This document shows, piece after piece, positions 2,051-36,630 of a DNA stretch of 37,881 nt (positions are counted from its first letter, which is position 1; each line of letters starts with the position of its first letter). The stretch covers positions 1-37,881 of the IMG/VR virus record IMGVR_UViG_2713896896_000009. The stretch is one strand, 5' to 3'. A program made the translations under genes and the position numbers. Below the pieces are notes generated by a model, which worked only from the letters and a program-made list of their open reading frames with translations, made no database searches and had not been told where the DNA came from. Source of the stretch: a virus (taxonomy: Duplodnaviria; Heunggongvirae; Uroviricota; Caudoviricetes).

Positions 2051-2079
2051 TTCATAATGTTGTAGTAAGGAGAGCAGTT

Positions 2080-2187
2080 ATGTGCGGACTGGATAAGGTG
2101 GACCTTTTCTTAATCATAACACTGTCAGTTAACTTCGGGATGTTATTGGCTTCTATGATTTTCATGCGGGGATATAAACAAAAATGA
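2080..2187 (+). CDS. Possible small membrane peptide (35 aa)
   Basis: ATG preceded by AAGGAG; hydrophobic translation MCGLDKVDLFLIITLSVNFGMLLASMIFMRGYKQK; stop overlaps the next start (ATGA). Below the ORF-track size cutoff. Confidence 0.3.
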   Translation: MCGLDKVDLFLIITLSVNFGMLLASMIFMRGYKQK

Positions 2188-8097: not shown

Positions 8098-8409
8098 ATG
8101 GCGACATTAACCAGAAGAATAAGTTTCTATCTGAAGCCAGCCGCCGTCAAGAACGAAGGCAAAGCATGCGCCTGGCTGGACAGCCTTACACCAGAAGCCC
8201 GCAAAAGCGGCCAACGCGTGGCTTTTCTGGCCGGGCTGGCACTTCTGAAAATGAATCCGGCAGAGGCTTACCGACTGGCTGCATGGGCTGATGATGAGGC
8301 GTTATCAGTGACACAAACCAGGGCAGAACGCCACATGTTACAGCCAGCGCCCACCGCACAGATAACCAGTCAGATAGCTGGAAATATCCGGGCGTTATTT
8401 CCCGAATAA
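8098..8409 (+). CDS. parR: ParR-like centromere-binding adaptor
   Basis: 103 aa directly after parM; FYLKPA...WLDSLTPEAR...AFLAGLAL parallels the R1 ParR N-terminus (F.LNPD...LDSIP..ER...AALTAGLAL). Confidence 0.7.
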   Translation: MATLTRRISFYLKPAAVKNEGKACAWLDSLTPEARKSGQRVAFLAGLALLKMNPAEAYRLAAWADDEALSVTQTRAERHMLQPAPTAQITSQIAGNIRALFPE

Positions 8410-9452: not shown

Positions 9453-9906
9453 CAATGCACAATAGTGCACAAATTTGCACAATTTTTTTGAACGACTTTT
9501 TACCCTTCCGGCCCGCATGGCGGCTGGATCCGTCAAGGATCCGTGCGTGCACAAAAAAACGCGTTTTTTCTGCGCGCAGGTGACGGGGGAACAGCCCGCG
9601 TTTCAGGGGGTAAATAGCATTCCCTGAGCGATGTCGCAGCGACACAATAGAATGGCTGTATTTCTCACGCTGAGCGTGAAAAAGACGTAAGGGTTTTTGA
9701 TTTGATGGGTTGAAAGGTAAGGCCGTCAAAATCGCACTGAGGCGGCGAGAACATACAGTCAACGCGGTGGGATTGCGTAAGAGTCTGACCGTCGATGGTG
9801 GCGATAAACTGGAAGGCGTCGTGAAATTATCTGACTGATACAGGAGCTGGAGAGTCGGGGCATAAATTTTTTATGCCCCGGCGAAGCAGCAGACAAGCGA
9901 AGCGCG

Positions 9907-10953
9907 TCAGGCTGTGGGCTGGGTGTCTAACAGTGCGTAAGGGTTAAAGCGGATCACCTCTTCGCCCAGCCAGTCATTGATGTGCTTCATGGCCTCCATT
10001 ACGGGCATCAGCTCGTTAATTGCGTAAACCCGCGCGGCCTTCTCCACATCACCAAACGCACTTTTTTCACCCGGCATCGCCCCCATCAGTTGCGGCGGAA
10101 CGCGGTGCGCAGCCAGCACATCATCACGGGATGCCGCCTTAACATTCATGAACTCATCCTTTGCGGTGATCTGCTGGAACGGCAAAATTTGCACCCCCTC
10201 TTTGCCCCCGTTGGGCGCATGAATGAGCACGTTTTTAAACGCACCACCACCACGTGCACCCTGTAGCGTTTCTTTCAGGGAGTCCATGCTTTCGCGGTTT
10301 ACCTGCGCTGCACCGATGTAGATGATGCACCCGGCGTGGGATCCGTTGTCGTAATACAGTTTTCTGAACATGTCCGCCGAATGAGACAGGCTGGCCGAGA
10401 GTAATGCGCCGAGATATTCCGGCATGCCGTAGATTTCCTGGTTAATGTCAGGATTCATCAGGTGGCACACTTTACCAGGGCGAAACTGAAACGCGTCCTT
10501 ACCATCCTGCACATACCACCATGATTCAAGATCGCTTCCGCGTCGCATGTATTTCGCCAGGGCGTGCCGTAATTTAAGCGGTTCGCCGAGCATATTGCTT
10601 CGAAGCTCAAGGAATGCGTTACCGAACACAAACCAGTCCAGCGCCAGCGCCGAGAAATCCTGCCGGGAAAGCAACGGGTGCGGGATGTAGCAACCGAGTA
10701 ATACATTGCGCTTAAAGTAAAGCGCAGACTGATGCCAGGACGTTTGCCGGGCAGCTCTTGCCAGACCGTACCAGTCCACCGGGGTTTCATACCACCGCCC
10801 GTTATCAGCACAGTACATATTGTCCAGCAGGTCATGCCCGGTCAGGCGATAAGGACCATCAAATGTGAATGCACTGAGCGACGATTCTTTCCTGAGCGCA
10901 TCAGCGAGATCAATGCGTGAACTCATGCGCACTTTTTTATTTTTTCTGCTCAT
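9907..10953 (-). CDS. Q: Portal protein, P2 gpQ family
   Basis: 348 aa at the P2 Q position, transcribed away from the capsid operon; start overlaps the terminase stop (ATGA). Confidence 0.88.
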   Translation of the reverse strand: MSRKNKKVRMSSRIDLADALRKESSLSAFTFDGPYRLTGHDLLDNMYCADNGRWYETPVDWYGLARAARQTSWHQSALYFKRNVLLGCYIPHPLLSRQDFSALALDWFVFGNAFLELRSNMLGEPLKLRHALAKYMRRGSDLESWWYVQDGKDAFQFRPGKVCHLMNPDINQEIYGMPEYLGALLSASLSHSADMFRKLYYDNGSHAGCIIYIGAAQVNRESMDSLKETLQGARGGGAFKNVLIHAPNGGKEGVQILPFQQITAKDEFMNVKAASRDDVLAAHRVPPQLMGAMPGEKSAFGDVEKAARVYAINELMPVMEAMKHINDWLGEEVIRFNPYALLDTQPTA

Positions 10954-12704: not shown

Positions 12705-12858
12705 TGCTCCCCCTGAGTAATTACAGGAAGATTACCCGCGCGCGAAACCGTTCTCCTTAACCCCCTGTTCTGGCCGTTTTCTTACAACAAAAGCCCTTTG
12801 TATCAGCCTGTTACGCTTTGCCATCATGACTGAAGAACCAGTCAGAGGGGCAAAAACT

Positions 12859-14781: not shown

Positions 14782-14794
14782 NNNNNNNNNNNNN
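14782..14794. other. Assembly gap (13 N)
   Basis: Run of N characters in the supplied sequence. Confidence 0.95.
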
Positions 14795-18148: not shown

Positions 18149-18776
18149 GGCATTCACCCGCGCGGATGAAACCTTCGAGGCTATCCGCGACAGCCTGAAT
18201 CAGCAGGCCATCAATAACATCGCCAGAAAACTGGCACAGGATTTACGCCGCGCCCAGCAGGCACGTATCCGGTCACAGAAAGCGCCGGGCGGGACCGCAT
18301 GGACACCACGCAGACGCCGCGTAACCCGGATACAGGAGCGCATTCGCTTTATCTGGAATAACGAAACACGCACGCTGAAAAACTGGCATCACGACACAGG
18401 GAAATACGGGCGAACCATTACCGGGTGGGATGAGGATAAAAACAATATCCGCACGTTTTACCGGGATGACATCGACCGTTTTCTGGAAATACGCACCCGG
18501 CGTATCAACCAGGACAGCACAAAGCACGTCCCCATGTTCGTAAAACTGCGCACCGCCCGTTACCTGAAAGCCCGCGCGGATGCCTCCGGTGTGACAGTGG
18601 GTTACAGCGGCGTGGCCGCACGTATTGCACGCGTTCATCAGTTCGGTGAACGCGATCAGGTTGCGCCGGGTATTTTCACCGATTACCCGGTACGTGAGCT
18701 GCTGGGTATCAGTCAGGCGGATGAGCGCCTGATTTATAACACGGTGCTGGGCCGGATTGCGGAGGCAGTACAGTGA
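18141..18776 (+). CDS. S: Tail completion / virion morphogenesis protein, P2 gpS-like
   Basis: Position between R and V; 211 aa, longer than P2 S as I recall it. Confidence 0.6.
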   Translation: MDKAFTRADETFEAIRDSLNQQAINNIARKLAQDLRRAQQARIRSQKAPGGTAWTPRRRRVTRIQERIRFIWNNETRTLKNWHHDTGKYGRTITGWDEDKNNIRTFYRDDIDRFLEIRTRRINQDSTKHVPMFVKLRTARYLKARADASGVTVGYSGVAARIARVHQFGERDQVAPGIFTDYPVRELLGISQADERLIYNTVLGRIAEAVQ

Positions 18777-21126: not shown

Positions 21127-22851
21127 ATGAGCACCACAACACGAAAATTTAAAACCGTTATCACCGATACGGGTGCAAAAAAATTAGCACAGGCAGCCGC
21201 ACCAGATGGCAAACCCGTCCGCCTGACACATATGGCCGTGGGTGACGGCGGCGGTACTTTACCCACGCCAGACAGTAAGCAGACCCGTCTCGTGCATGAG
21301 GTGTGGCGACATACCGTTAATCGCGTCTTCCTGGACGCAACACATCAGAACCGCATTATTGCGGAGCTGGTTATTCCTCCAGAAACGGGCGGATTCTGGA
21401 TCCGGGAAATTGGTGTGTTTGATGAGCACGGCGATTTAATCGCGGTGGGCAATACTGCCGAAAGTTACAAGCCAACCGTTGCCGAAGGGTCCGGGCGTGC
21501 GCAAACATTTCGCACCATCCTGACCGTATCCAGCACGGCCACCGTGGCGCTTACCGTGGATAACACCATGGTGATGGCCACAGTGGATTACGTGGATGAC
21601 AAACTAAAAGAGCATGAACAGTCACGACGTCACCCGGATGCCTCGCTGACCGCAAAAGGCTTTACTCAGTTAAGCAGTGCGACCAACAGCACGTCTGAAA
21701 CGCTGGCTGCGACGCCAAAAGCTGTTAAGGCGGTAATGGATGAAACGAACAAGAAAGCGCCGCTGTCGAGTCCGGCACTCACCGGAACGCCAACCGCACC
21801 AACTGCGCCAAAGGGTACTAACAATACTCAGATAGCAAACACGGCGTTCGTTATGGCCGCGATTGCCGCACTTGTAGACTCATCACCTGACGCACTGAAT
21901 ACGCTGAACGAGCTGGCTGCGGCATTGGGCAATGACCCGAACTTTGCGACCACTATGACCAACGCGCTTGCGGGCAAGCAGCCGAAAGACGCCACCCTGA
22001 CGGCGCTGGCCGGGCTTGCTACTGCGGCAGACAGGTTTCCGTATTTTACAGGGAATGATACCGCCAGCCTGGCAACTCTGACAAAAGTCGGGCGGGATAT
22101 TCTGGCTAAAGCGACCGTTGCCTCCGTTATCGAATACCTCGGTTTACAAGAACTCGGCACGAGCGGAGAAAAAATACCGTTACTCAGTACAGAGAATACC
22201 TGGACTAATCGACAAACATTCAACGGCGGCCTTTCCGGGGAACTGTCCGGCAATGCCGCTACTGCGACAAAACTGAAAACAGTAAGAAATATTAATGGAG
22301 TTAAATTTGATGGTTCCAGCGATATAAATATTAATACGTTAGTATCTCGCAACCGTGTTACAGCATTAGGTGGAAGCGCAAAGGGTACGCCAGGTATCCA
22401 AATGTATGAAGCGTACAACAATGGATATCCTTTTACTTATGGCAATGTTCTTCATCTTACTGGCGTAGCGGCAGTTGGCGAAGGAGAGTTATTTATTGGG
22501 TGGAGTGGAACCAGCGGCGCTCATGCTCCGGCGTATATTCGCTCCCGACGAGATACCGCAGATGCTAACTGGTCTGGATGGGCGCAACTATATACAACCG
22601 CTCATAAACCATCAGCGGGAGATATTGGTGCATATACCAAAGCAGAATGCAATTCACGATTTATTACAGGTATTCGATTAGGTACAAAATCATCAGCGCA
22701 AACATGGAATGGTCCTGGCTGGGGCGATAAATCTGGTTACGTTGTTACAGGTTCCGTTAACTCAAACAAAGATGAACTTATTGATACAACACAGGCAAGG
22801 CCAGTGCAATATTGTATCAATGGCACCTGGTATAATGCAGGAAGTATTTAA
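21127..22851 (+). CDS. H: Tail fibre protein, P2 gpH family (constant N-terminus plus invertible C-terminal module)
   Basis: The N-terminal ~330 aa matches P2 H closely (FKTVITDTGAKKLA, HEQSRRHPDASLTAKGFTQLSSATNSTSETLAATPKAV); ends with a CINGTWYN motif. Confidence 0.93.
   Translation: MSTTTRKFKTVITDTGAKKLAQAAAPDGKPVRLTHMAVGDGGGTLPTPDSKQTRLVHEVWRHTVNRVFLDATHQNRIIAELVIPPETGGFWIREIGVFDEHGDLIAVGNTAESYKPTVAEGSGRAQTFRTILTVSSTATVALTVDNTMVMATVDYVDDKLKEHEQSRRHPDASLTAKGFTQLSSATNSTSETLAATPKAVKAVMDETNKKAPLSSPALTGTPTAPTAPKGTNNTQIANTAFVMAAIAALVDSSPDALNTLNELAAALGNDPNFATTMTNALAGKQPKDATLTALAGLATAADRFPYFTGNDTASLATLTKVGRDILAKATVASVIEYLGLQELGTSGEKIPLLSTENTWTNRQTFNGGLSGELSGNAATATKLKTVRNINGVKFDGSSDININTLVSRNRVTALGGSAKGTPGIQMYEAYNNGYPFTYGNVLHLTGVAAVGEGELFIGWSGTSGAHAPAYIRSRRDTADANWSGWAQLYTTAHKPSAGDIGAYTKAECNSRFITGIRLGTKSSAQTWNGPGWGDKSGYVVTGSVNSNKDELIDTTQARPVQYCINGTWYNAGSI
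22127..22154. repeat. gix-like crossover site (left) inside H
   Basis: ttatcgaatacctcggtttacaagaact is an imperfect inverted repeat of 25031-25058 and resembles Mu gix as I recall it; lies at the shared LGLQE junction. Confidence 0.7.
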
Positions 22852-22853
22852 TT

Positions 22854-23387
22854 ATGATGCATTTAAAAAATATTAAAGCAGGAAACCCCAAAACCGTAGA
22901 ACAATATGAATTAACACGACAATTTGGCGTTGTCTGGTTGTATTCTGATGACGATAGAAACTGGTATGAGGAACAGAAAAACTTTCAGGAAGATACAATA
23001 AAATTTGCTTACACAGCCGATGGAATCATTGTGGCTGTAGATAAGGATGTATCGACAATTAACCCTGAAGGTTTAAGCGTTATTGAGGTTCCCAATATTA
23101 CAGCCAATCGACGGGTCGATATTTCTGGTAACTGGATGTTCAAAGATGGCGCAGTGATAAAGCGGGAATATACCGAAGAAGAACAGAGACAACAGGCGGA
23201 AAATGAGAAGCAAAACCTGTTACAACTCGTCAGGGATAAAACCCAGCTATGGGATTCTCAGCTACGACTTGGAATTATTTCTGCTGAGAATAAACAAAAA
23301 TTGACCGAGTGGCTGCTCTACGCGCAGAAAGTGGAGTCTACGGATACCTCCGTCCTGCCAGTAACGTTTCCTGAACAACCAGAATGA
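22854..23387 (+). CDS. G: Tail fibre assembly chaperone, P2 gpG family
   Basis: 177 aa directly after H. Confidence 0.85.
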   Translation: MMHLKNIKAGNPKTVEQYELTRQFGVVWLYSDDDRNWYEEQKNFQEDTIKFAYTADGIIVAVDKDVSTINPEGLSVIEVPNITANRRVDISGNWMFKDGAVIKREYTEEEQRQQAENEKQNLLQLVRDKTQLWDSQLRLGIISAENKQKLTEWLLYAQKVESTDTSVLPVTFPEQPE

Positions 23388-23390
23388 GAG

Positions 23391-23408
23391 AAGGCCCGTT
23401 CGGGCCTT
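23391..23408. terminator. Hairpin between the convergent chaperone genes
   Basis: aaggcccg-ttc-gggcctt followed by a T-rich run on the plus strand. Confidence 0.5.
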
Positions 23409-23411
23409 TTC

Positions 23412-23948
23412 TTATTCTGGCTTTTGTGGCCATTCAGGATTTGCCGTATCCACGTGGCTAACCAGAACGCTGTAGCGTTCCCAGGCATCCAGCTGTGTAC
23501 GTTCCTCATCTGTTGCCAGATTCATCCTGACGGCACGTTCCAGCAGCTGGATGACTGATTCAGCTTCGGAAAGCAAAGCTGCTTTTTGTGATTCAGCCTG
23601 CTGTTGTAATTCATCTTCTGTATAGACTCTTTTAATTACAGCACCATCCTTAATCATCCAGTTGCCGGAAATATCAGCGCGTCGGTTTGCCGTAATATTG
23701 GGTAACTCGATCACACTCATTCCCTCTGGATTAATCAGGGATGCGTCTTTCTCTATGCAGCAAATAATACCATCCTGGTTATATGCCACTTTTAACGTGT
23801 CTGGCTGGAAATTTTTTTGTTCCTCATACCAGTTCTTACCTTCTTCCGACCATAACCAGACAACATCAAATTCTTTTGTAAGTTGATACTGTTCGATAGT
23901 TTTTGGATTTCCTGCTTTAATATTTTTTAAATGCATCATATTAAGCAC
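23412..23948 (-). CDS. Alternative tail fibre assembly chaperone (inverted copy)
   Basis: 178 aa, recognisably related to the plus-strand gpG copy ([14 protein letters not shown]...[22 protein letters not shown]). Confidence 0.82.
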
Positions 23949-25058
23949 GTCCTACATTGTACCACTGACCATTAATATATTTCTGAACAGGTGCATAAAC
24001 AGGCCATTCCCAGTCGTCATCAAAATTCCCGCCAGTGAGAACATATCCCGCCGGAAGTGTTCCACCTTCGCCACCCCATTTTATCCCGCTCTGGTTAGCT
24101 CCCATGCGAATGTCACGCACATAGCGGGAATCAAAATTTCCGTAATCTGATGGGTTAACACGTCCGGTAACATTTAACCCATGCCCAATTGAAACAGCAC
24201 CATTGGCGTTGTTAATAGTAAGTGGTCTTAAATTATTCCATGAGCCAAATCTGTCACCGGATGCAGTCAGCATAAAATAAGTATCTTTGCCGTCATTTCT
24301 GATAAAGAAACCATAATTGCCATAAGCAACGCGAAGACCATTGGCATAGAGCGATGTAATTTCACCTCTTGAACGGAGACCATAAGCGGAGCTGAGTGAT
24401 AATTCTTCCTGAGCGTCATAGTTTCCTGTCGCCCAGCGAATTACCCCGCCCTGTACTGTTTCGTGCCAGATAGTATCTCCTTCTCCACCACGAAACTTTC
24501 TGAGATATTTTTTGCCGCCTCTGGTGCCTGAACATAAGGCCGTAGACATATAGGCATTCTGGCTTCCACTATCCTGATTAATAGTTCCAGACATAGAATC
24601 GCCGTAACGGTTCCAGTCACGCCGCCAGCCAGGAGCATAGTTGTCCCCGTGGTTAATATAAGTAAATTGCGCGCTTGTAGCGCCCCCACCGCTTGATGTT
24701 GTTGGTGTGGTAATACGAATAGTCATTGCAGACTTTATTCCCATTACCTCAATAACAGCGCCAGCAAGATGAATATTGCCACAGCCCGTATCGGTAATAA
24801 GTTTATTATTGGCATATGACCAGGAGCCTTTGCACATCCAGTATGGGTGATTAAAAGCGCCTACCGAATCAAGCCACTCAATAAACTGAGCTGTAGTCCA
24901 GTTTCCACCTTCTGTGCTGTAAGAGCCGCTAAAAGCACGCGCTGCACTAATATTTTTTGCAAAAGTGTCTTTACCTGGAATATCTGCGCCGTTCTGGTTT
25001 TTCTGCAATGCGCCAGCGGCCTGATTTACCGTTTCCTGCAAACCGAGGTTTTTGATAA
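23941..25058 (-). CDS. Alternative tail fibre C-terminal module, currently in the silent orientation
   Basis: The minus-strand ORF begins at the gix site with the LGLQE junction and ends in an [11 protein letters not shown] motif; it has no N-terminal domain of its own. Confidence 0.75.
25031..25058. repeat. gix-like crossover site (right)
   Basis: gtttcctgcaaaccgaggtttttgataa; its reverse complement matches the left site at most positions. Confidence 0.7.
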
Positions 25059-25088
25059 TGGTCGTTTCTGGCCCACATGGCATGATTT

Positions 25089-25712
25089 GTGCTTTTGAGC
25101 GGGAGATTCAACGTGCTGATTGGCTATGTACGCGTGTCAACAAATGACCAGAACACGGATTTGCAACGCAATGCGCTCAATAGCGCAGGATGTGAACTGA
25201 TTTTTGAAGATAAAATCAGCGGAACAAAATCAGCCAGACCGGGATTGAAAAAACTGCTCAGAACGCTGTCAGAAGGCGATACGCTGGTTGTCTGGAAACT
25301 GGACAGGCTGGGCAGAAGCATGAAACACCTGATCACACTGATTGAGGAATTACGGGAAAAAGGTGTCAATTTTCGTAGTCTGACGGATTCAATTGATACC
25401 AGTACACCAATGGGGCGCTTTTTCTTCCACGTGATGGGCGCCCTGGCTGAAATGGAACGTGAATTAATTGTTGAGCGAACACTGGCCGGACTGGCAGCAG
25501 CACGCGCACAGGGGCGCATTGGTGGGCGTCGCCCGAAACTGACAAAAGAGCAACATGAGCAAATAGCAAGGTTGATTAAAAACGGCCATGACAGAAAACA
25601 ACTGGCCATAATTTACGGTATTGGTATATCGACGATTTATCGTTACCACCCCGCGGGAGAATCAACCGGAACAACAGATAAGACCAGAGGAAACAAAAAA
25701 CCGCTAATCTGA
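25089..25712 (+). CDS. Serine DNA invertase, Gin/Pin/Hin/Cin family
   Basis: LIGYVRVSTNDQNTDLQRNAL and the downstream resolvase fold with a C-terminal HTH; adjacent to the invertible segment. The start may instead be the in-frame GTG at 25113. Confidence 0.92.
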   Translation: MLLSGRFNVLIGYVRVSTNDQNTDLQRNALNSAGCELIFEDKISGTKSARPGLKKLLRTLSEGDTLVVWKLDRLGRSMKHLITLIEELREKGVNFRSLTDSIDTSTPMGRFFFHVMGALAEMERELIVERTLAGLAAARAQGRIGGRRPKLTKEQHEQIARLIKNGHDRKQLAIIYGIGISTIYRYHPAGESTGTTDKTRGNKKPLI

Positions 25713-25724
25713 TCATTAGCGGTT
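25699..25724. terminator. Bidirectional intrinsic terminator between the invertase and the convergent tail operon
   Basis: Stem aaccgctaat / attagcggtt with a 6-nt loop, flanked by an A-run on the left (T-run for the minus strand). Confidence 0.6.
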
Positions 25725-25734
25725 TTGCATTAAA

Positions 25735-26229
25735 TCAGAACAACCCTTTAACTGAACTGGTCGCGCTGTTAAGGGATGCTGTCACCTTATCTTTAAGGCC
25801 GGACAGCATATCACTGAACGCTGAGGATTGCAGGCGTTCCCGCAAATCCTCATCACAGCGTTCAAGGGTCAGGGAAAACTCTATCTTTTTCGCTTTCCCG
25901 TAGCGATCCAGTTCAGAGCGGGTCGTGCTCGTTTCGGTCAGAACATACATGCCGTAAATCTGCCCGACGCCATCAATCAGAGGCCACGGGCGCCCCATAT
26001 ACGCCTGCGTGGTCAGCAGCGACAGCGACACTTCGCCGCCTGTAATCTCAGGATAAAGCACGCCGGAAAGAACGATGCGATCATCACCTGCACCGATATA
26101 CTGCCAGCTTGCTGAACGGTTAACGCGCTCGTTTTTCACATGTCGCCAGCTTTTGTTTTGCTGTAACTGCTGATGCGGCAACGTGCGCAGCTCAAAAACA
26201 AACATGCCGTAGATCATCATCATGGCCAT
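25735..26229 (-). CDS. U: Tail protein, P2 gpU family
   Basis: 164 aa; parallels P2 U (WRHV.N.RVNR, LSGVLYPEITGG, WPLIDG.G.IYGMYV). Confidence 0.85.
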   Translation of the reverse strand: MAMMMIYGMFVFELRTLPHQQLQQNKSWRHVKNERVNRSASWQYIGAGDDRIVLSGVLYPEITGGEVSLSLLTTQAYMGRPWPLIDGVGQIYGMYVLTETSTTRSELDRYGKAKKIEFSLTLERCDEDLRERLQSSAFSDMLSGLKDKVTASLNSATSSVKGLF

Positions 26230-26235
26230 GACTCC

Positions 26236-29073
26236 TCAATCTTTATCGTAAAAACTGCCACGCCCGGCACGGGCACGCCGTTCCATTTCTGCCCTGACCA
26301 TTTCACCGACCAGTTTCGCCAGTTCGCGAGGATTCTGCGTAACAACGTTATGCAGATGGACATGAATTTCACCACCAAATCCGGGGATCGCAGCCTCCCG
26401 GCTGCGGGAAGATGCGGAAACGGGCGCAACTGGCGCACGTGCGGCCTCCACGACCGGACGGGAGCTTGCTGCAACAACAGGGGGCAGCGCCGGAGATAAC
26501 GGAGCCGGGGGCGCGGGAGTGATATTGATTGCAGGAAGAGCCTTGTTGCTCTGCGCAACCTTTCGCTCCTGCCACTCCCCACGAACAGCAAGCGCACGGG
26601 GCAAATTCTTAAAGACAATATCACCGGGGCCGATACGCTTTTTCGTCTCATCAACCAGCTTGCCTGTGTTATCTGCAATTTTGCTGAGCCTGCGCAGCGT
26701 GCCAGTGTTGTTGTCCGTGAGCGGCTTGTTGTCTTTAGGCTTATCGCCTCCGGTCCCTGTTTCCGCAGATTTCGGCGGATTGATTTTTGCCAGGTCCCCC
26801 TGAAGCAAAGCAACCTTGTCCTGAAGAATGGCCGCACGCTGCGCGTCTTCGATTTTCTTTCTCGCCCTTTCCGCTTCATCTGGAAGGACGCCAAGTTTTT
26901 CCAGTATCCATGCCAGCGTATCCAGCAGCATTTTTGCAGGCGTCAGGACAAGCTGTAACGCACCGCCAAGAACGTTGCCGAACACCTCGCCAGCACTGGT
27001 GCATTTATCCAGCGTTTCCTTGCTGGATTCCATCGGTGACAGCAGCGATGTAAACCAGTTAAAGACCTGAATCACGCCATCACGAACCAGTTCGAAAACA
27101 GGGCCAAACCGTTCAAAGGTTTCGCGCAACGGGGCCAGCCGCTCCATAATCCCGCTGAACACCCCGGCAAAAAATGCCCTGATTGGGTCCCAGTATTTCC
27201 AGATGAGAACGGCAGCTCCGGCAAGCGCAGCTACGATAAGACCGACCGGGCTGAACAACGCCCCGATAGCGCCTCCCAGTAAAGAGACGGAACCCGCCAC
27301 CATTCCCCACAGCGCTGGCAGGACCCTGACAGCATTCATTGATCCGGTCAGGAGGGAAAAACCAAGACGCAGTTTTGCCAGCGGGCCAGCAAGCACCCCA
27401 AGAGCCAGTGACAACGAGCCAACCGTTGCAGTCATTGCCAACAGCGCACCGCCTGCAATCAGTAGCTGGCGCGTCAGTGCCGGATGGGCCTGCGCCAGCT
27501 CCGTCACCTTTGAGACCACCCGAGTGAGCCACTGCGTGACAGAGCGCAGCGGACCGTCAATCAGATCCGCAATGCGGATACGCAGCCCCTCCCATGCACT
27601 GCCGAGTGATTTCAGGTCGCCATCAAGGTTATTAGCCATAACCTTTGCCGTGCGTTCAGCCTCACCGTGTGCGCCTTCAAGTTCTTTTCTCAGTTTGGGC
27701 AGAGAACCGTCACCTGCCGCATCAACGAGGGCCATAAATGACGTGAAGGCCTCTTCTCCGGCTATGTCCTTAAAGAACGATACCCGGTCAACTTCCCCGT
27801 ATTTGCGGGTGGCTTTATAAAGGTCGGCCAGCACATCCTCCATCGGGCGCATTTTGCCGTTCGCATCAGAGACAGCCACACCAAGCTCTTTCAGCGCCTC
27901 TGCTGCCGCCTTTGGCGGTGATGCCAGACGAGCAAGGCTGGCACGCATTGCCGTCCCGGCATCACTCCCTCTGATACCCATATTCGCCAGCACGCCCGCC
28001 ATCGCTGCGGCCTGCTCCAGCGATATTCCCAGCTTACCCGCCACCGGACCTGCATATTTCATGGTTTCGCCCAGCGCGCGAAGGTCGGTGTTAGTACGGG
28101 TAAACGCCGCAGTAAGTGTGTCACCGACCCGGTCCATCTGGTCAGCAGAGAGGCCGAACTGCGTCAGGATATTTGAGCCAATATCCGCCGTCTCGCCAAG
28201 GTCCATACCGCCAGCCGTTGCCATGCTCAGCACGCCGGGAAGCGCAGCCTGAATGGCTTCTGGTGTGAAGCCAGCCATAGCAAGAAATGCCTGCCCACTG
28301 GCGGCATCACTCGCAGTAAACTGCGTTTCAGAGCCGAGCTTTAGCGCCTGCTCACGCAGCGCCTTAAACTGCGGGCTGTTCTGGTCAATTCGCGTCAACG
28401 CCTGCACACGGGACATCTCTTTCCCGAATCCGATAGCGGGCTGCAAAAAACGCCCGGCAGCATAGCCGCCAGCCGCTGCCGCACCAGTTGCCAGCGCACC
28501 ACCCGTTTTCAGTTTTCCCGCTGTTTCCTGCGCGCGTGAATACTGCTCACGCGCCCGCGTTACACGCGCAAGCGCCTGTCGTTCGCGTTCAAGCTGGTTG
28601 TTGTACTGTTCGGTGCGTCTGATGGCCTGCTGGATGGTGTTATCGCTGCCTGTCAGGGAAATACCGTGGCGTTTAAGCTCTCCGCCAAGCTCCCGCATTT
28701 TCTGAATTTCCCGTGTGCGCGATTCATTCAGGCGTTCAAGCCGGGTGCTTAACTGCTGCATCAGCCTTTGTTGTTTTTCGCTGAGCACCGTACCCGTGCG
28801 TTGTAACTGATGAAGGGCGTTAAGCTGGCGTCGTGCTTTCACGATGCCAGCATCCGCTTTACTGACAGCATCGCGGGCGCGCTCAAATGAACGCGCCTGA
28901 CGCTCGAGATTTTTGATCGCCCCCTGCGTTCGCTGGATGGAGTCACCAAGCTGTCCCATCAGGCGGCGGGCGTTTTCGGCTGGCCGGGTCAGCCTGTCAA
29001 CAGCACTGAAGGCGACCCGAATGTCAAGAGTCTTCATCGTCTGCATTCCCACTGCGAAGTGCCGCCCGCTCAC
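26236..29073 (-). CDS. T: Tail tape-measure protein, P2 gpT family
   Basis: 945 aa, alanine/glycine-rich with TM-like central repeats, between E' and U. Confidence 0.9.
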   Translation of the reverse strand: MSGRHFAVGMQTMKTLDIRVAFSAVDRLTRPAENARRLMGQLGDSIQRTQGAIKNLERQARSFERARDAVSKADAGIVKARRQLNALHQLQRTGTVLSEKQQRLMQQLSTRLERLNESRTREIQKMRELGGELKRHGISLTGSDNTIQQAIRRTEQYNNQLERERQALARVTRAREQYSRAQETAGKLKTGGALATGAAAAGGYAAGRFLQPAIGFGKEMSRVQALTRIDQNSPQFKALREQALKLGSETQFTASDAASGQAFLAMAGFTPEAIQAALPGVLSMATAGGMDLGETADIGSNILTQFGLSADQMDRVGDTLTAAFTRTNTDLRALGETMKYAGPVAGKLGISLEQAAAMAGVLANMGIRGSDAGTAMRASLARLASPPKAAAEALKELGVAVSDANGKMRPMEDVLADLYKATRKYGEVDRVSFFKDIAGEEAFTSFMALVDAAGDGSLPKLRKELEGAHGEAERTAKVMANNLDGDLKSLGSAWEGLRIRIADLIDGPLRSVTQWLTRVVSKVTELAQAHPALTRQLLIAGGALLAMTATVGSLSLALGVLAGPLAKLRLGFSLLTGSMNAVRVLPALWGMVAGSVSLLGGAIGALFSPVGLIVAALAGAAVLIWKYWDPIRAFFAGVFSGIMERLAPLRETFERFGPVFELVRDGVIQVFNWFTSLLSPMESSKETLDKCTSAGEVFGNVLGGALQLVLTPAKMLLDTLAWILEKLGVLPDEAERARKKIEDAQRAAILQDKVALLQGDLAKINPPKSAETGTGGDKPKDNKPLTDNNTGTLRRLSKIADNTGKLVDETKKRIGPGDIVFKNLPRALAVRGEWQERKVAQSNKALPAINITPAPPAPLSPALPPVVAASSRPVVEAARAPVAPVSASSRSREAAIPGFGGEIHVHLHNVVTQNPRELAKLVGEMVRAEMERRARAGRGSFYDKD

Positions 29074-29242
29074 GCCAGCTAACCACTTCGCCGGGCGTCA
29101 TCATGAAGATTTCGGCGGGCGACCAGTTAAAAATAACGGCAATATCTGCCACAAAGTCTTCTATGTGCTCAAAGCACACAACCGTGATCAGGCTTCCGTC
29201 GCCTGTTCGTTCTTCCCGCCAGAGTCCGCACCGCTCAAAAAA
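29024..29242 (-). CDS. E' extension of the tail assembly chaperone, reached by -1 frameshift
   Basis: The -1 frame is open from the slippery heptamer to the stop at 29024 and overlaps the T start, as in P2 E+E'. Confidence 0.6.
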   Translation of the reverse strand, partial: FFERCGLWREERTGDGSLITVVCFEHIEDFVADIAVIFNWSPAEIFMMTPGEVVSWRERAALRSGNADDEDS

Positions 29243-29556
29243 TTTACGGCAACCACACATAACTGAATAAAGTCACAGGATGCCATTTTTTTGATCGTCA
29301 CTTCATCCAGTCGCGGTGATGTCACGCGTGACAACAGCGTAAACATGGATTCCGCTTTCAGATTCAGCACATCAGACAGCGACAGACCACGCAGGGATCC
29401 AGCCTGCTCAATAGCCCCGGTGATCTCCACATACGTGATTTTTTCGTCGCCTCGCTCAATTGGCTGGGTAAGTTTTACGCCGCGCTCGCTGGTTTCTTTC
29501 GCAGTATCAGCAACCACCACAGCGTTTTCAGTATTGGTATTTTTCGTCTCTTTCAT
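29188..29556 (-). CDS. E: Tail assembly chaperone, P2 gpE family
   Basis: 122-aa ORF between FII and T on the same strand. Confidence 0.7.
   Translation of the reverse strand: MKETKNTNTENAVVVADTAKETSERGVKLTQPIERGDEKITYVEITGAIEQAGSLRGLSLSDVLNLKAESMFTLLSRVTSPRLDEVTIKKMASCDFIQLCVVAVNFLSGADSGGKNEQATEA
29236..29242 (-). other. Programmed -1 frameshift slippery heptamer TTTTTTG
   Basis: Minus-strand T-TTT-TTG within E; slipping -1 enters the E' frame. Same heptamer type as P2 E/E'. Confidence 0.55.
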
Positions 29557-29610
29557 CAGAAAACTCCTTTCAGTCAGAGGCGACGCACTGCGCCGCCTGC
29601 ATATTACTTA

Positions 29611-30123
29611 TCAGCCGAGCCCGAGCGCGGAGCGGATGCGGTCGGGTACAATGTCCTTGCCATCCTTCCGGTAGATGTGGTTCACCAGGTCAATTTCCCA
29701 CACCGGACGATCGTTAATACTCAGCTTGTAGTAGGTGTTTTTGACAGCGTAAGTGTGTGACGTGGCTTCGCCCTGTTTGGCCTCCCCCATATCAATTTCC
29801 GTCACACGCCCGCGCATCTCGATTTCATACAGGTCGCTTTCTGCATCGGTGTAGTATTCACCCGCAAAACGCAGCAGCGTGCCGTCCATTGTTCCGCCAT
29901 ATTTAAGGAACAGCGCACGAACGGCGCCCCCCATGACAAAACTCGCATCAAGCGCGGAATCGTCCAGACCGAGGTCGATACTCACCGCCCCCATCATGCC
30001 ACCACCACGATAGCTGTCGGTTTTACGCGTCAGTTTAGGCGGGGTGACAGACGTCACCTTACCCACTTCATTTTCACCATCCACAAACAGCGTAAAAAAA
30101 CGAAGATGTTTTGGTACGGCCAT
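29611..30123 (-). CDS. FII: Tail tube protein, P2 gpFII family
   Basis: 170 aa at the expected position. Confidence 0.88.
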   Translation of the reverse strand: MAVPKHLRFFTLFVDGENEVGKVTSVTPPKLTRKTDSYRGGGMMGAVSIDLGLDDSALDASFVMGGAVRALFLKYGGTMDGTLLRFAGEYYTDAESDLYEIEMRGRVTEIDMGEAKQGEATSHTYAVKNTYYKLSINDRPVWEIDLVNHIYRKDGKDIVPDRIRSALGLG

Positions 30124-31307
30124 TAAGCACCTCCAAGCACCGCAAATGCAGGACCAAAGAACTCATCAGTGAACGCCTGGTAAAGCTCCATATCTTCCAG
30201 CGGAGGAACGGGCGTATATTTATAGCGAATACGCACGCGCCCCTGTCGCAATTCTGTGGTGCTGTTATCCACGATGTCATACCAGCACGATGCGCCAATC
30301 AGTTTCCCGGCAGTAACCAGCGAATCAAGTTTTGCCCTCATAGCGCTGATAACATCCTTCACGTTCGCAGGCGTCAGTGGACTGTCGATGGTTTCAAACT
30401 GCGCTTCCGCAACCGTGTCAGCCAGCACCTGTGCGGTTCGGGTATACACCTCAAAAATGTAGGCGTTCGTTTCCGGCGTACGGTTACCCCAGAAGCGGAA
30501 CCCGTTGCGGCGAATGATGGTTGTGATTTCTTTGTTGTTGAGGCTGTTGGCATCGCTGTCTTCGGCCTGCAACGACCAGAACACATGCCTGGACATCCCC
30601 AGCACATTTTTGACCGGAACGTTGGACAGCGATTTGTGCCAGCCCTGCTCATGGTCAATGTACGCACGAAGGCCGCACGCATAGGCTGGCGCGGGGAAAA
30701 CCTCATTCTCGCCACTTTTCGGGTTGTAAGCGATGAAGTCCGGCCACAGGAGCATCAGCTCGCGTTCGTTGAATTTTTCACGGTATGCAATGGCTTCAGC
30801 CATCGTGTTACAGCCATGACAGGAGGCATACACAAATGCGCGCAGTTTACCTGCAATCACGCACAGGGATTTTGTCACCGCCTCCGTGTCCAGCCCCGGC
30901 GCGGCCAGAATACGCGGACGGTATCCGATGCTTTCATCCTGCTCTGCAACAAGCAGCGCATACATCCCCGTATAGCTGCCGTCGGATTCAGAACCACCGA
31001 TAACCAGTTGATCCTGTGTTTTTCCGTCTTCTTCTTTGTGTTCAGCCACGCGAACGACGATCACCTTTGTGCTCACCTGGTCTGCAATGGGTTTCAGCGC
31101 ACGGTACAGCGTCCCCGTTGTCCCGCATTTTCCCAGCACGTCATTGACGCGGGTCACTAATGCAGGCTTGTTCAGCGGGAACAGCTTCGCGTCCGCATCG
31201 TCCGCCGTTGCCACGATACCGATAACGCTGGAATCAACGTCGTTAATTGCTGTTACCAGGTCGGTACTTTCCGTAACGCGGGCGCCATGAAAGCGAGTTT
31301 CACTCAT
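30123..31307 (-). CDS. FI: Tail sheath protein, P2 gpFI family
   Basis: 394 aa; start of the minus-strand tail operon. Confidence 0.92.
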   Translation of the reverse strand: MSETRFHGARVTESTDLVTAINDVDSSVIGIVATADDADAKLFPLNKPALVTRVNDVLGKCGTTGTLYRALKPIADQVSTKVIVVRVAEHKEEDGKTQDQLVIGGSESDGSYTGMYALLVAEQDESIGYRPRILAAPGLDTEAVTKSLCVIAGKLRAFVYASCHGCNTMAEAIAYREKFNERELMLLWPDFIAYNPKSGENEVFPAPAYACGLRAYIDHEQGWHKSLSNVPVKNVLGMSRHVFWSLQAEDSDANSLNNKEITTIIRRNGFRFWGNRTPETNAYIFEVYTRTAQVLADTVAEAQFETIDSPLTPANVKDVISAMRAKLDSLVTAGKLIGASCWYDIVDNSTTELRQGRVRIRYKYTPVPPLEDMELYQAFTDEFFGPAFAVLGGA

Positions 31308-31464
31308 AGTTCCAGCCCCTTGTATCCGTTAAATGATTCGGCAACAATCATCACCCACCACGCGCGTAATCTCATCCCTGCGCCGTTCTTGCCGCCCGGC
31401 GACAACAAAAAGCAGTAACCACGCCCGCACACACATGCGACCATGCTGCACAGGGAGGGAGCCG
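31308..31464. promoter_or_regulatory. Divergent intergenic region between FI and D (late promoters expected)
   Basis: 157 bp between divergent starts; no Ogr-type TGT-N12-ACA site could be confidently placed. Confidence 0.3.
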
Positions 31465-32574
31465 ATGATTGACACCACCATGCAACTGTTCAACCAGAGT
31501 ACTGACCCCGTGAAGATGCCTGATTTTGATATTCTCGCGGAGGGGAAAACGCTGTCCGGTGTGGCAGAACGCCTGATGAGCCTGTCACTGACCGACAACC
31601 GGGGATTTGAAGCAGACCAGCTAACCATCACGCTGGATGATGCTGATGGTCAGTTGCAGTTGCCGCCACGGGGCGCTCGCCTGACGGTTCTCATTGGCTG
31701 GAAAGGTGAACCGCTGACAGAAAAAGGCACTTACATTGTTGATGAAATTGCTCATGAAGGACCGCCCGACAGACTGACCATTTCAGCCAGAAGCGCAGAT
31801 TTTCGGGATGAATTTAACGTCAAGCGCGAAGTATCCTGGCATGATGTGACCGTTGAACGCGTGGTGTCTGCAATTGCTCACCGATACGGCCTGAAACCGC
31901 AAATCAGCGAAATGCTGATGGATATTGAAATCGACCACGCTGACCAGACCGAAGAAAGCGACATGTCCTTCCTTACACGCATGGCGGAAATGCTGGGCGC
32001 AATCACCACGGTAAAAAGCGGTAATCTGTTATTCATCATGCCAGGTGGTGGCGTGAACGCGCAGGGAAAACCATTACCATCGTTTGCCATCACACGCAGC
32101 AGTGGCGATCGCCATCAGTTCCGCATTGCTGACCGCGAAGCGTATACGGGGGTACGCGCTTACTGGCTTGATCTTAATTACGGGAAAAAGAAAAAAGTCA
32201 GCGTGAAACGCCGTAAACCGCCAAAACCCAAAAAGGAGAAAAGTAGCAGCCGTGAAGGTGATTATATGGAAGGCGCGGAAGGCAATGTGTTTGTGTTACG
32301 CAAGACTTATCAGAACGAGCAGGCAGCAAGACGCGCAGCGGCGGCAAAGTGGCAGCAGCTACAACGCGGAGCCGCAGCGTTCTCCATCACGCTGGCGCGT
32401 GGACGTGCAGAACTCTATCCCGAAATGCATGGCACGGTGACAGGCTTCAAAAGTGACATCGACAATCAGGACTGGATTATTGCAAAAGCCGAGCACACCA
32501 TTGATAACAGTGGCTTTACCACGCAGCTTGAACTTGAAGCAAAAATCCCGGAATGGATAGCAGAAACAGAGTGA
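31465..32574 (+). CDS. D: Tail/late control protein, P2 gpD family
   Basis: ATG at 31465 after GGGAGGGA; LSLTDNRG.EADQLTITL and the FI-proximal position parallel P2 D. Confidence 0.88.
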   Translation: MIDTTMQLFNQSTDPVKMPDFDILAEGKTLSGVAERLMSLSLTDNRGFEADQLTITLDDADGQLQLPPRGARLTVLIGWKGEPLTEKGTYIVDEIAHEGPPDRLTISARSADFRDEFNVKREVSWHDVTVERVVSAIAHRYGLKPQISEMLMDIEIDHADQTEESDMSFLTRMAEMLGAITTVKSGNLLFIMPGGGVNAQGKPLPSFAITRSSGDRHQFRIADREAYTGVRAYWLDLNYGKKKKVSVKRRKPPKPKKEKSSSREGDYMEGAEGNVFVLRKTYQNEQAARRAAAAKWQQLQRGAAAFSITLARGRAELYPEMHGTVTGFKSDIDNQDWIIAKAEHTIDNSGFTTQLELEAKIPEWIAETE

Positions 32575-32736
32575 GCAACTTAAATGTATTAACTCAGAAC
32601 GGATCAACACACTCACAACATAGAGTCAATATAGCTGCTCGCTTTGTTCCAGCAAGGATGCCTATTTCTAAGGAAAAACAGAGCAGAAACATATGGTGTT
32701 TTTCTACCTGACATCAGGGGTGGTAAGAATCATGCT

Positions 32737-32764
32737 TTGATAACCAATTGATAACTATTATTAT
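32737..32764 (+). promoter_or_regulatory. Candidate sigma70 promoter for the PIN-like gene
   Basis: TTGATA, 16-bp spacer, TATTAT, about 35 bp upstream of the ATG at 32800. Confidence 0.3.
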
Positions 32765-32799
32765 ATTAATCTAACACCATTGACATAGTTGAGGTTTGA

Positions 32800-34302
32800 A
32801 TGAACAAAAAGCTGTATTTATTCCCAGACTCAAACATTTTTCTACAATGCAAGGCCTTGACGCAGGTAAATTTTTCCGAGATTACTGCTTGTGATGAAGT
32901 ATGTATCATTATTACAAGGCCCATTCAGCAAGAGATTGACCGCCAGAAAGGGCAAGGTAATTCCCGCCTATCCAAAAAAGCAAGGAAGGCTGCTAGCCTA
33001 TTTAATCAAGTAGTTGATTCAACTGACATGACTCTTGTTATTCGTGAACGCTCGCCGCGAGTTTTTCTTACCATGGATCTAAGCCTGAAACCATGTGAAC
33101 AGTTATCTGAACAATTGGATTATCAGGAGGCCGACGATCGTTTTGTTGGTATTGCGGCAGGGTATTGCGCTGACGATCCAGATTCGGAGGTGGCAATCAT
33201 TACCAATGATAGCGGTCCACGTTTTTCAGCAATAAAACATAATATAATCTGCTATAAAGTGCCTTCTTCATGGTTGCTTCCTGCTGAGCCAGATGAAAAG
33301 GATAAACAAATTAAATTGCTGGAAGCTAAGCTGAAGCAATTCACTCAGTCTATGCCCGATTTCAGCATTAAAGCAGCCGATGACGAGCAATTAAATATTG
33401 TACTTCCTTATTATACAGCTTTATCTGAATATGAAGTTGATAATTTGCTTTGTCAACTAACGGATGCATTCCCATTGGTTACAAACTTTGACAATGAACA
33501 AACTACCTCACAATCACTAGAAAAAATCATCAAGTCATTTAGTCAACAGGAGTATTTCCCTGTATCAGCAGATGATATTTCTCTTTATAAAGAAAAACAT
33601 TATCCACTTTGGAAAAAGCAGTGTGAAGAAATACTGAAAAACTGTCATACTCATATTAATCCGAAGGCAATAAAATACCCGCTGTCGTTTTTATTACAAA
33701 ACACAGGTTATACTATCGCTGAACGTGCTGTGGTAACATTTACAGCAAAAGGAGATTTTCGTCTGTGTGGATTTAATTGGGAGATAATGGAAGAGCTGAC
33801 TGAAAGCAAAAGGATTGACCTACCTTCAGCCCCTACCGCACCCAAAGGAAAATGGCGTAGTGTATGTGGCGTAACAGAAAGAATGCCTTACGCTTGGGGA
33901 GCTTTGGAAACACCGCTATCCAGTATAATTTCAAAAGAAATTGGTCCTTTGTTATCTCTTACTCCAACAGAAAGGGATAAAAACGATTTTTATTATAAAG
34001 AAAAGAGAAATGTGCCAGTTCAAGTTGTATCACTGGAATGCGAAGAGTGGCGTCATCAAGTCAAAGAAGAAATATTCCCGTTGTTCGTATATACAGCCAA
34101 CAAACCAAAGAAAGTGAATGGTGCAATTGAGGTAAGAGTTGATGCAAATAACCTTACCAATCCGGTCATTAAAACATTTAAATTAAAAATAACTATAGAA
34201 GAACATAGTGCATTTTCAACCATAACAGAAATGGTGCAGACATACATTCAAGAGCAGAAGAAAAGACAGAAAAGTTCTATTAGCGCACAAATCAAAACAT
34301 GA
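32800..34302 (+). CDS. 500-aa protein with N-terminal PIN-like nuclease domain and unassigned C-terminal region
   Basis: Clean ORF with GAGG RBS. The N-terminus shows the PIN arrangement of acidic residues (LFPDSN, DEVCIII, ADDRFVG, IITNDSG). The gene is visibly AT-rich relative to flanking phage genes and is inserted between D and ogr. Confidence 0.6.
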   Translation: MNKKLYLFPDSNIFLQCKALTQVNFSEITACDEVCIIITRPIQQEIDRQKGQGNSRLSKKARKAASLFNQVVDSTDMTLVIRERSPRVFLTMDLSLKPCEQLSEQLDYQEADDRFVGIAAGYCADDPDSEVAIITNDSGPRFSAIKHNIICYKVPSSWLLPAEPDEKDKQIKLLEAKLKQFTQSMPDFSIKAADDEQLNIVLPYYTALSEYEVDNLLCQLTDAFPLVTNFDNEQTTSQSLEKIIKSFSQQEYFPVSADDISLYKEKHYPLWKKQCEEILKNCHTHINPKAIKYPLSFLLQNTGYTIAERAVVTFTAKGDFRLCGFNWEIMEELTESKRIDLPSAPTAPKGKWRSVCGVTERMPYAWGALETPLSSIISKEIGPLLSLTPTERDKNDFYYKEKRNVPVQVVSLECEEWRHQVKEEIFPLFVYTANKPKKVNGAIEVRVDANNLTNPVIKTFKLKITIEEHSAFSTITEMVQTYIQEQKKRQKSSISAQIKT

Positions 34303-34545
34303 GGGTGTACTCAAATAATACAATGCTATAGTAAATCTATAAGTGCATAACTATTTCCTGATCTTTTCCCAAAATAGATGACAGGATAAAAAACATTCCA
34401 ATCTTTTACAGGCTTTGGATAAATCTTATCAAAGCCTATTTCTTCAAGAGTTAAATCACCGCTTTTCGCTCGAAACGGACTGGCTGTTGGAGTATGAGCC
34501 AGAACAACTTAGAATAGCCCCTGCACTACGTTAAGGGAGGTCGCT

Positions 34546-34806
34546 ATGTTCCGTTGTCCGCTTTGTCGCGCATCTGCCCGTATCCGCACCAGTCGTCCTG
34601 AAAATGATTCAAACACCGTGCGGCAAAAGTATTACCAGTGTAACAATCTAGAATGCGGCGTATGCTTCTCAACACTGGAAGCTTTCCATAAATTCACATC
34701 GAAACACGCCTCCGGCGTTCACTCTTCAGAAGGTATCCCGTGGCATGAGCTGCCAGCTTCACACAGGGGAAACAATCAGATGAGTTTGCCTTTGCCTCAA
34801 AATTAA
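34546..34806 (+). CDS. ogr: Ogr/Delta-type zinc-finger late-gene activator
   Basis: MFRCPLCRASARIRTSR...YYQCNNLEC matches the P2 Ogr C2C2 zinc-finger N-terminus. Confidence 0.85.
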   Translation: MFRCPLCRASARIRTSRPENDSNTVRQKYYQCNNLECGVCFSTLEAFHKFTSKHASGVHSSEGIPWHELPASHRGNNQMSLPLPQN

Positions 34807-35399: not shown

Positions 35400-35732
35400 A
35401 TGGCATTAATCAAATGTCCTGAATGCCAGAAAGAGGTGAGCGATTCAGCATTGTATTGCCCTGCTTGTGGTAAACAACTACAAAAACTTAAGCGTTCATT
35501 TTTTGGACGGATCATTAAGTGGGTTTTTATATTATTTAATATTTTTATGATCTATACGCTTTTAGTTGGACTAGGAGGCACTAGTGAAATAATAAATAAT
35601 GCCACATCCGATGCCGAAAAAACCGGTGCAGTTATTGGTACAGGCTTAGGTTTAATTACCATTGGAAGCTTATGGGTTATTGGTGATATCATCATCGGAA
35701 TTTTAGTATTTCTTACTAAACCAAAGGGATAA
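35400..35732 (+). CDS. Zinc-ribbon membrane protein (N-terminal CPxC...CPxC, two TM segments)
   Basis: MALIKCPECQKEVSDSALYCPACGK followed by two hydrophobic helices; AT-rich; AAGGAGG RBS. Confidence 0.6.
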   Translation: MALIKCPECQKEVSDSALYCPACGKQLQKLKRSFFGRIIKWVFILFNIFMIYTLLVGLGGTSEIINNATSDAEKTGAVIGTGLGLITIGSLWVIGDIIIGILVFLTKPKG

Positions 35733-35736
35733 TAAA

Positions 35737-36630
35737 ATGAAAAATATAATTTTTTCTATAGGTGCATCATTTATATCAATTAGTGTACTGCCTGTTCACG
35801 CAGCAACTGAACATAAGAACTTCAATGCAGTACTCCAGTGCCGAGCAATAGAAAATAATAAAGACAGACTTTCTTGTTACGATAAGTCAATACAACCGAC
35901 TCGAACGAAAGTTGCTGAAAAATTCGAAAGCAGAGATCAATGCCCTGATGAGAAAGATGATGATAGACGTTTATCTTGTTATGATCGTTTCTTTTCTCCA
36001 ACATTTACTCCATCTGTAAACTCAAAATCTAAAACGGAAAAGCCAGTAACAACAGAGGCTCAGCAACCAAATCTTTCTGAGATATCTAAATGTCGTGCAG
36101 AAAATGATAAAGAAGCCAGACTAAACTGCTACGATAAACTATTCCCACAGGATAAAGCCGTTCAAGCTGAATCAAAATTAGAGAAAGCCACAGATGTAGG
36201 AAAATGGCACACATCCATTACTACATCGCCAATTGATGATTCGAAAAATGTAATTTTATCGTTAGAAAGTGATGATTATATCAGAACTCCATTTGGAGAA
36301 ACGGTTACTCCTACTCTGTTTATAGCTTGCCGAGAAAAGAAAACAGAAGTATTTCTTAGTTGGGATGTATATTTAGGCCTTGAACAAACCAGCATGCTTT
36401 ATCGCCTTGATAAACAGAAAGCAGTTGAGCGAAACTGGCTAGTATCTACAGATACAAAGGCTGTTTTTTATAAAGGTAATGACATTGATTTCATCCGAAA
36501 ACTAGCCAACTCAAGCAAAATGTATACAAAAATAACGCCTTATAATGAGAGCCCCGTAAGTGCAACTTTCAATTTAAACGGCCTGTCAAACGCGCTAAAA
36601 CCGCTTCAAGCTGCTTGTAACTGGAAATAG
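35737..36630 (+). CDS. Secreted protein with three tandem Cys-containing repeats and an unassigned C-terminal domain
   Basis: Signal peptide (MKNIIFSIGASFISISVLPVHA); repeats LQCRAIENNKDRLSCYDK, DQCPDEKDDDRRLSCYDR and SKCRAENDKEARLNCYDK; starts 4 nt after the upstream gene; AT-rich. Confidence 0.6.
   Translation: MKNIIFSIGASFISISVLPVHAATEHKNFNAVLQCRAIENNKDRLSCYDKSIQPTRTKVAEKFESRDQCPDEKDDDRRLSCYDRFFSPTFTPSVNSKSKTEKPVTTEAQQPNLSEISKCRAENDKEARLNCYDKLFPQDKAVQAESKLEKATDVGKWHTSITTSPIDDSKNVILSLESDDYIRTPFGETVTPTLFIACREKKTEVFLSWDVYLGLEQTSMLYRLDKQKAVERNWLVSTDTKAVFYKGNDIDFIRKLANSSKMYTKITPYNESPVSATFNLNGLSNALKPLQAACNWK

Follow-up and report, generated by a model that had tools for sequence, protein, structure and literature searches.

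An inverted FI-to-U tail gene block and a putative two-way late promoter between FI and D in P88-like phages of the family Peduoviridae

The DNA analysed here, a stretch of 37,881 nucleotides referred to below as the window, is a P2-like prophage, as indicated by its list of open reading frames and by tblastn searches with the P2 proteins. The integrase gene (1–1020, minus strand) is followed on the same strand by replication gene A, Q and P; then come, on the plus strand, O, N, M, L, X, the lysis genes, R, S, V, W, J, I, H and G. The S and V genes overlap by 4 bp (18773–18776) and are devoid of a separate V-operon promoter region, unlike in P2, where orf30 and pV sit between them; O through G may constitute one long late unit in the window. 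Downstream of its replication gene, the prophage carries two plasmid partition genes, encoding ParM (StbA; 7132–8091) and a StbB-type protein (8098–8409). Such genes are unusual in a P2-like phage that integrates; phage P88 and the Escherichia coli strain RM9088 have them as well. Downstream of ogr and the hok/gef region, positions 35400–36630 encode a zinc-ribbon protein and a VasI-like (type VI secretion-associated) protein, and this region displays 98% DNA identity to the genome of phage phiSM.

The tail genes FI to U occupy the minus strand between 25735 and 31307. Their products were identified by PHROG and Pfam matches as the gpU tail protein (25735–26229; 46% identity with P2 U), the gpT tape measure protein (26236–29073; 33%), the gpE tail chaperone (29188–29556; 33%), the gpFII tail tube (29611–30123; 41%) and the gpFI tail sheath (30123–31307; 45%), whereas the gene encoding the gpD baseplate hub/spike, identified in the same way (31465–32574; 49%), is on the plus strand; the tblastn matches of all six proteins with their P2 counterparts are near full length. 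The E′ reading frame, which would be entered by a −1 frameshift, spans 29024–29260 on the minus strand, matches the Pfam family Phage_P2_GpE and has counterparts annotated as CDSs in P88 and RM9088. Since both this frame and a P2-type slippery heptamer, TTTTTTG (29242–29236, minus strand), are present, the chaperone frameshift is intact. A preliminary description of the window had stated that FI through U are intact, in canonical internal order and on the minus strand, which is borne out by the ORF coordinates, the PHROG and Pfam assignments and the tblastn matches. It was also right about the reference arrangement, FI-FII-E-T-U-D being co-oriented with H and G in the P2 reference record, and about D lying outside its usual operon, FI-to-U being on the opposite strand. 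The block resembles the F operon of P2 (transcribed from pF) in gene content, in the order of the genes and in its E/E′ frameshift signal, but the P2 operon is co-oriented with V–G and includes D, whereas in the window FI-to-U is reversed and D is left outside. The proteins of the two operons are only 33–49% identical.

On its right side, the block is separated from D by a spacer of exactly 157 bp (31308–31464), across which FI and D diverge, as previously described. The D start at 31465 is a conserved ATG preceded by a GGGAGGG ribosome-binding site, as seen in the alignment of relatives. The D frame is open further upstream, up to an in-frame ATG at 31333, and thereby yields a spurious ORF of 413 aa that includes 31333–31464; small 'hypothetical proteins' are likewise annotated in the FI/D spacer in the records of P88 (14343–14474) and SEN4 (9800–9952). 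Neither the upstream extension nor the small spacer ORFs are probably genes, since the indels observed among relatives are not multiples of three. Beyond D, the gene for the Ogr/Delta zinc-finger late activator lies at 34546–34806 on the plus strand (PF04606, 4e-13, 49.5 bits for a cut-off of 26.3). The two genes are separated by a 1.9-kb cargo insertion (32586–34485) containing an ORF of 500 aa (32800–34302) with an N-terminal PIN_4 domain and its own sigma-70-like promoter (32737–32764). Other relatives carry different cargo between D and ogr, e.g. a DUF2971 gene in RM9088, so that this slot looks like an insertion hotspot.

On its left side, the block converges on a gene for a serine DNA invertase of the Gin/Cin/Hin type (25089–25712, plus strand; phrog_125, 4e-98; Pfam Resolvase and HTH_7), which is about 80% identical to gin at the DNA level. 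These coordinates are those of the longest ORF, starting at GTG 25089; the true start is likely GTG 25113 (the product then reads VLIGYVRVS), because the conserved LIGYVRVS motif follows this codon and because the resulting length of 199 aa is that annotated in RM9088. Only two matches to gix/hix-like crossover sites were found within the window, and none in shuffled sequences: the left one lies inside H (22127–22152, plus strand) and the right one just upstream of the invertase gene (25033–25058, minus strand). They bound a Mu-G-type fibre segment (22127–25058) with 26-bp inverted sites, in which the minus strand encodes alternative G′ and H′ parts. As in the G segment of Mu and the C segment of P1 (switched by Gin and Cin), H has a constant N-terminal part and two alternative C-terminal parts, the chaperone genes are in opposite orientation, the inverted crossover sites are 26 bp long and the serine invertase gene is adjacent. 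Between the stop codons of the invertase gene (25712) and of U (25735), we found a hairpin with a perfect 12-bp stem, AAAACCGCTAAT/ATTAGCGGTTTT (25697–25726), where the preliminary description had placed a terminator common to the two converging units. The folding energies are −14.7 kcal/mol for the plus-strand hairpin (z −4.1) and −15.6 kcal/mol for its minus-strand counterpart (z −4.7). On the minus strand, i.e. on the side of the U operon, it is followed by UUUUUUGUUU, a U-run, whereas the U-run of the plus strand lies partly within the hairpin stem. A stable GC-containing hairpin followed by a U-run is what defines a Rho-independent terminator, and 25697–25726 is a probable two-way intrinsic terminator for the invertase and U genes, predicted to be stronger for the U operon.

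The orientation of the block had been attributed beforehand to either a genuine rearrangement or a scaffolding error. We used as a query 8 kb of the window spanning both block junctions and, as an artificial control, the 3′ end of U joined to the 5′ end of D as in P2. Eight distinct phage genomes align with the query in a single piece, at an identity of about 90%: P88, Xuanwuvirus P884B11, Citrobacter phage phiSM, 520873, 500465-2, 503458, Chuche and PhiR44_2. In P88 and phiSM, the annotated genes are on the same strands as in the window. At least 80% of the query is found in one collinear place in 1107 of 5426 complete E. coli genomes, and the native FI–D junction is contiguous in 1301 complete E. 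coli genomes; by contrast, 1388 genomes contain the halves of the artificial U-to-D junction, and in none of them are the two contiguous. The best E. coli match, RM9088, is 97–99% identical to the window in the region of the block. The run of 13 N between N and M (14782–14794), which had been regarded as an opening for mis-scaffolding, is 11 kb from the block and inside a single collinear alignment of 7.3 kb with RM9088; therefore it hides no rearrangement. Hence the idea that the block was misoriented during scaffolding or assembly, which the gap could inspire since it betrays a scaffolded sequence, can be discarded, as both junctions are crossed by single alignments to isolated phages and to over 1000 finished chromosomes of E. 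coli, the junction expected from the opposite orientation is absent and the gap is remote and collinear. What stands of the initial alternative is the rearrangement relative to P2; the error is excluded. Neither is the layout peculiar to this genome, as had been implied: it is shared by P88, phiSM, SEN4 and about one-quarter of the finished E. coli genomes, and the synteny comparison with related P2-like prophages that had been proposed shows the inverted orientation to be collinear across both junctions and standard in a subgroup of P2-like phages that has already been described. In addition, P88 and phiSM can be induced and form plaques (PMC5285337; PMC6456863); therefore the inverted layout is functional.

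The relationship with P88 (Xuanwuvirus P88, NC_026014) is close. The order and orientation of the genes from the fibre segment through the invertase gene, U, T, E′, E, FII, FI and D to ogr are identical in P88, phiSM and the window, and a single alignment with about 90% identity covers 24615–32582. The differences lie in the integrase/immunity end (window positions 1–2190 are unmatched), in the fibre tips and in the 1.9-kb PIN-domain cargo that the window carries between D and ogr. Over positions 1–35212, a blastn comparison with the full P88 genome gave a coverage of 84% and a product of identity and coverage of 77%. Under the ICTV threshold, members of a genus share at least about 70% nucleotide similarity with the type phage across the genome. 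Judged by nucleotide similarity, the window belongs to the genus Xuanwuvirus and represents a species different from P88, the similarity being below the 95% species level. Note that product names are shifted in the phiSM record (OR565851.1), where the sheath bears the name 'late control gene D protein' and D the name 'ogr', and that the phiSM paper reports a long non-contractile tail, yet the genome encodes a sheath and a tube.

The spread of the inverted order was assessed by a scan based on D-protein alignment, with one genome per bacterial species. We examined the 80 best of the 307 matches, which cover the less distant lineages, and placed FI, FII, E, T, U, D and ogr in each of these 80 loci by tblastn. 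A D protein with at least 61% identity to that of the window is encoded in 48 of them, and in every one of these 48 loci U, T, E, FII and FI lie on the strand opposite to D; the P2 order is found in every locus with a D identity of 48–54% and a locatable FI or U. As the loci are related to each other, these counts and the conservation counts given below do not represent independent events. Within the same 80 loci, the inverted ones are distributed over about 20 genera of Enterobacterales, namely Salmonella, Trabulsiella, Symbiopectobacterium, Edwardsiella, Serratia, Erwinia, Enterobacter, Pantoea, Kosakonia, Citrobacter, Pectobacterium, Brenneria, Klebsiella, Xenorhabdus, Photorhabdus, Providencia, Morganella, Hafnia, Yersinia and others. 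The block is also inverted in SEN4 (Salmonella; Senquatrovirus) and in Kp4871-3 (Klebsiella; Reginaelenavirus), where it adjoins D and ogr as in the window; D identity with the window is only 64–74% in these phages, and SEN4 differs further by the absence of an invertase gene, so that U converges directly on G. A Peduovirus carrying an invertase gene displays the canonical order. One match came from an assembly with a Gram-positive label, 'Vagococcus sp. WN89Y' (NZ_JBQPOM010000071.1): it is an enterobacterial prophage on a 226-kb contig, with a D protein 96% identical to that of the window and a 157-bp spacer, and the assembly is probably contaminated or mislabelled.

Given that the invertase gene abuts the block and that enzymes of the Gin family invert DNA between inverted crossover sites, FI-to-U might be a second invertible segment, the window being one of its two states. 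We consider this hardly tenable: both crossover sites of the window bound the H/G fibre segment, with FI-to-U outside it, no inverted repeat or extra crossover site that could be a trace of the inversion was found at the ends of FI-to-U in the window, and the other orientation is absent from all 1388 genomes, against 1301 with the native junction. Moreover, an invertase gene is present in only five of the 48 inverted loci among the best 80 of 307 matches, and SEN4 has none. A Gin/Hin/Cin-type invertible segment was consequently rejected for FI-to-U.

Alternatively, the block might be a tail module recently imported from an unrelated myovirus and inserted backwards by chance. Phage genomes are mosaic, and the neighbouring fibre genes I, H and G indeed display another level of similarity to P2 (61–74%). 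However, the tblastn identities of FI, FII, E, T and U with P2 (33–46%) are close to those of Q, P, N, V and D (42–49%), so that the block is about as far from P2 as the head, baseplate and D genes. The inverted loci also form one clade with no canonical member in neighbour-joining distance trees, calculated without support values, of D, which lies outside the block, and of FI and U, which lie inside it, so that the FI and U trees separate inverted from canonical loci just as the D tree does. In addition, the geometry of the FI promoter described below equals that of canonical P2-like phages. We therefore regard a recent import as very improbable. The agreement between the three trees, together with the equal divergence from P2, is better accounted for by a single old inversion passed down within a large branch of the Peduoviridae than by the import of a module. 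In conclusion, the inverted block is a fixed feature of gene order throughout this branch, which comprises Xuanwuvirus, Senquatrovirus, Reginaelenavirus and prophages in about 20 genera.

The inversion would have carried the late promoter of FI along with the block. P2-type late activation requires both Ogr and the alpha subunit of RNA polymerase. Midway between the two genes, the window contains an Ogr-type activator box (31387–31404) whose plus-strand sequence is TCT-N12-ACA; read towards FI, on the minus strand, it is TGT-N12-AGA. In P2, late transcripts start about 55 nt downstream of a TGT-N12-ACA dyad to which Ogr binds (P2 reference record). The box of the window is one mismatch away from this dyad and was recognised only through the alignment of relatives; a search for exact TGT-N12-ACA at the late promoters of the window gave no match. 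Within the best 80 of 307 matches, the box is present in 46 of the 48 inverted loci, and the distance from its centre to the FI ATG is 78.5–88.5 nt (median 82.5) across inverted loci. The same distance is observed in canonical P2-like loci (79–84 nt) and at P2 pF (~83 nt), where the box is followed by a −10 hexamer, as predicted for the window; therefore the FI promoter probably travelled with the block. On the other side, the distance from the box centre to the D ATG is 66.5–79.5 nt in 39 of 42 inverted loci from the same set, despite the divergence of the spacer sequence.

A −10 hexamer is predicted on either side of the box, 46 nt from its centre in both cases: GATGAT (31352–31347, minus strand) for a leftward FI promoter and GACCAT (31439–31444, plus strand) for a rightward D promoter. 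Alignment of the 44 distinct spacers of the inverted clade, drawn from the best 80 of 307 matches, uncovered a nAnnAT hexamer 44–49 nt from the box centre on both sides. On the FI side, A45, A48 and T49 are each present in 44 of 44 spacers; on the D side, the corresponding counts are 42, 32 and 40. In the canonical clade, the A45/A48/T49 hexamer is found on the FI side of all 13 sequences and is absent from the opposite side (5, 2 and 1 of 13 at these positions). The predicted transcription starts would lie near 31340 (leftward) and 31450 (rightward), which would give D a very short leader of about 14 nt. A scan for consensus promoters detected neither a sigma-70 consensus promoter nor a consensus pair of elements in 31308–31464, in keeping with promoters that depend on an activator. 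A −10 element without a recognisable −35 element and a phage-encoded Ogr/Delta activator characterise the late promoters of the P2 type, and both are found here; we infer that the two predicted promoters depend on Ogr.

A shared site of this kind has a precedent in P2, where P and O are served by a single activator site, with mapped divergent starts 55–56 nt on either side of it (P2 reference record). The window resembles this arrangement twice. Between P and O, a comparison box, TCT-N12-ACA, is found at 12769–12786, with hexamers TAATCT and CATCAT at the corresponding distances. Note that the O frame has its first ATG at 12826, where it overlaps the −10 hexamer predicted for pO (12822–12827), and that a start around 12859, matching the annotation of RM9088, is more likely. 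Between FI and D, one dyad box again lies between divergent late units, the difference being that the starts are mapped in P2 whereas the hexamers of the window are predicted. P2 uses the shared-site design at P/O only, and the branch of the window appears to have a second one at FI/D. The similarity between the P/O and FI/D spacers is itself marginal, their best 26-nt match being reached in 12 of 300 shuffles; a 19-base pattern common to both was set aside, as it had been derived from these very spacers.

Taken together, these data lead us to propose, with high confidence, that the window is a P88-like prophage in which one ancient, branch-wide inversion of FI-to-U and its promoter gave rise to a fixed gene order, neither an artefact nor a switch, with an Ogr-type box shared by FI and D. 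According to this proposal, the inversion would have turned FI-FII-E/E′-T-U leftwards, late promoter included, and would thereby have placed the Ogr-type box of the FI promoter midway between FI and D. One bound activator would then drive FI-to-U leftwards, up to the hairpin shared with the invertase gene, and the same bound activator would drive D rightwards and, in most relatives, D and ogr. In fact, ogr lies 36–61 nt after D in 42 of 47 inverted loci among the best 80 of 307 matches, and D and ogr are probably co-transcribed in the loci with such a gap.

The expression of D allows another reading, namely that the layout is genuine but that D lacks an Ogr-dependent divergent promoter, either because it has an unrecognised promoter of its own or because the right-hand hexamer plays another role. 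The D-side hexamer is less conserved than the FI-side one, as seen at A48 (32/44), and the predicted D leader is very short. Even so, the D-side hexamer lies at the FI-side distance from the box and only in the inverted clade, the spacing between box and D ATG has been held although the sequence diverged, and P2 provides the precedent of one site serving two promoters. We therefore deem a D gene without an Ogr-dependent divergent promoter unlikely. The comparative data suggest, instead, that the late promoter of FI serves D with its opposite face. As to how this came about, we lean on balance towards a scenario in which the inversion brought the dyad box to D and a new −10 element then evolved at the mirror distance, so that a one-way promoter became a two-way promoter and D-ogr came under the control of Ogr itself. 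If this holds true, the FI/D region would be a clean natural example of an operon split by an inversion without loss of co-regulation, and would supply a usable synapomorphy for a deep branch of the Peduoviridae.

The gene order as such is already known, having been available for years in public annotated phage genomes (P88, SEN4 and phiSM). A survey of the literature on Xuanwuvirus, P88, SEN4 and inversions in P2-like phages yielded genome reports but no discussion of the FI-to-U inversion and no description of a mirror-symmetric FI/D promoter region; a paper on xenorhabdicin was rejected as a precedent, as its inversions lie within the fibre region and not in FI-to-U. The symmetry of the FI/D promoter region is a small comparative observation rather than a discovery. 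For annotators, it follows from our analysis that the P2 order should not be expected in the P88-like branch and that the small ORFs of the FI–D spacer should not be called. For the biology of these phages, the inversion marks a monophyletic branch of P2-like phages that is widespread in the Enterobacterales, and the mirror symmetry conserved in the spacer provides a specific prediction of how D may stay co-regulated with the other tail genes.
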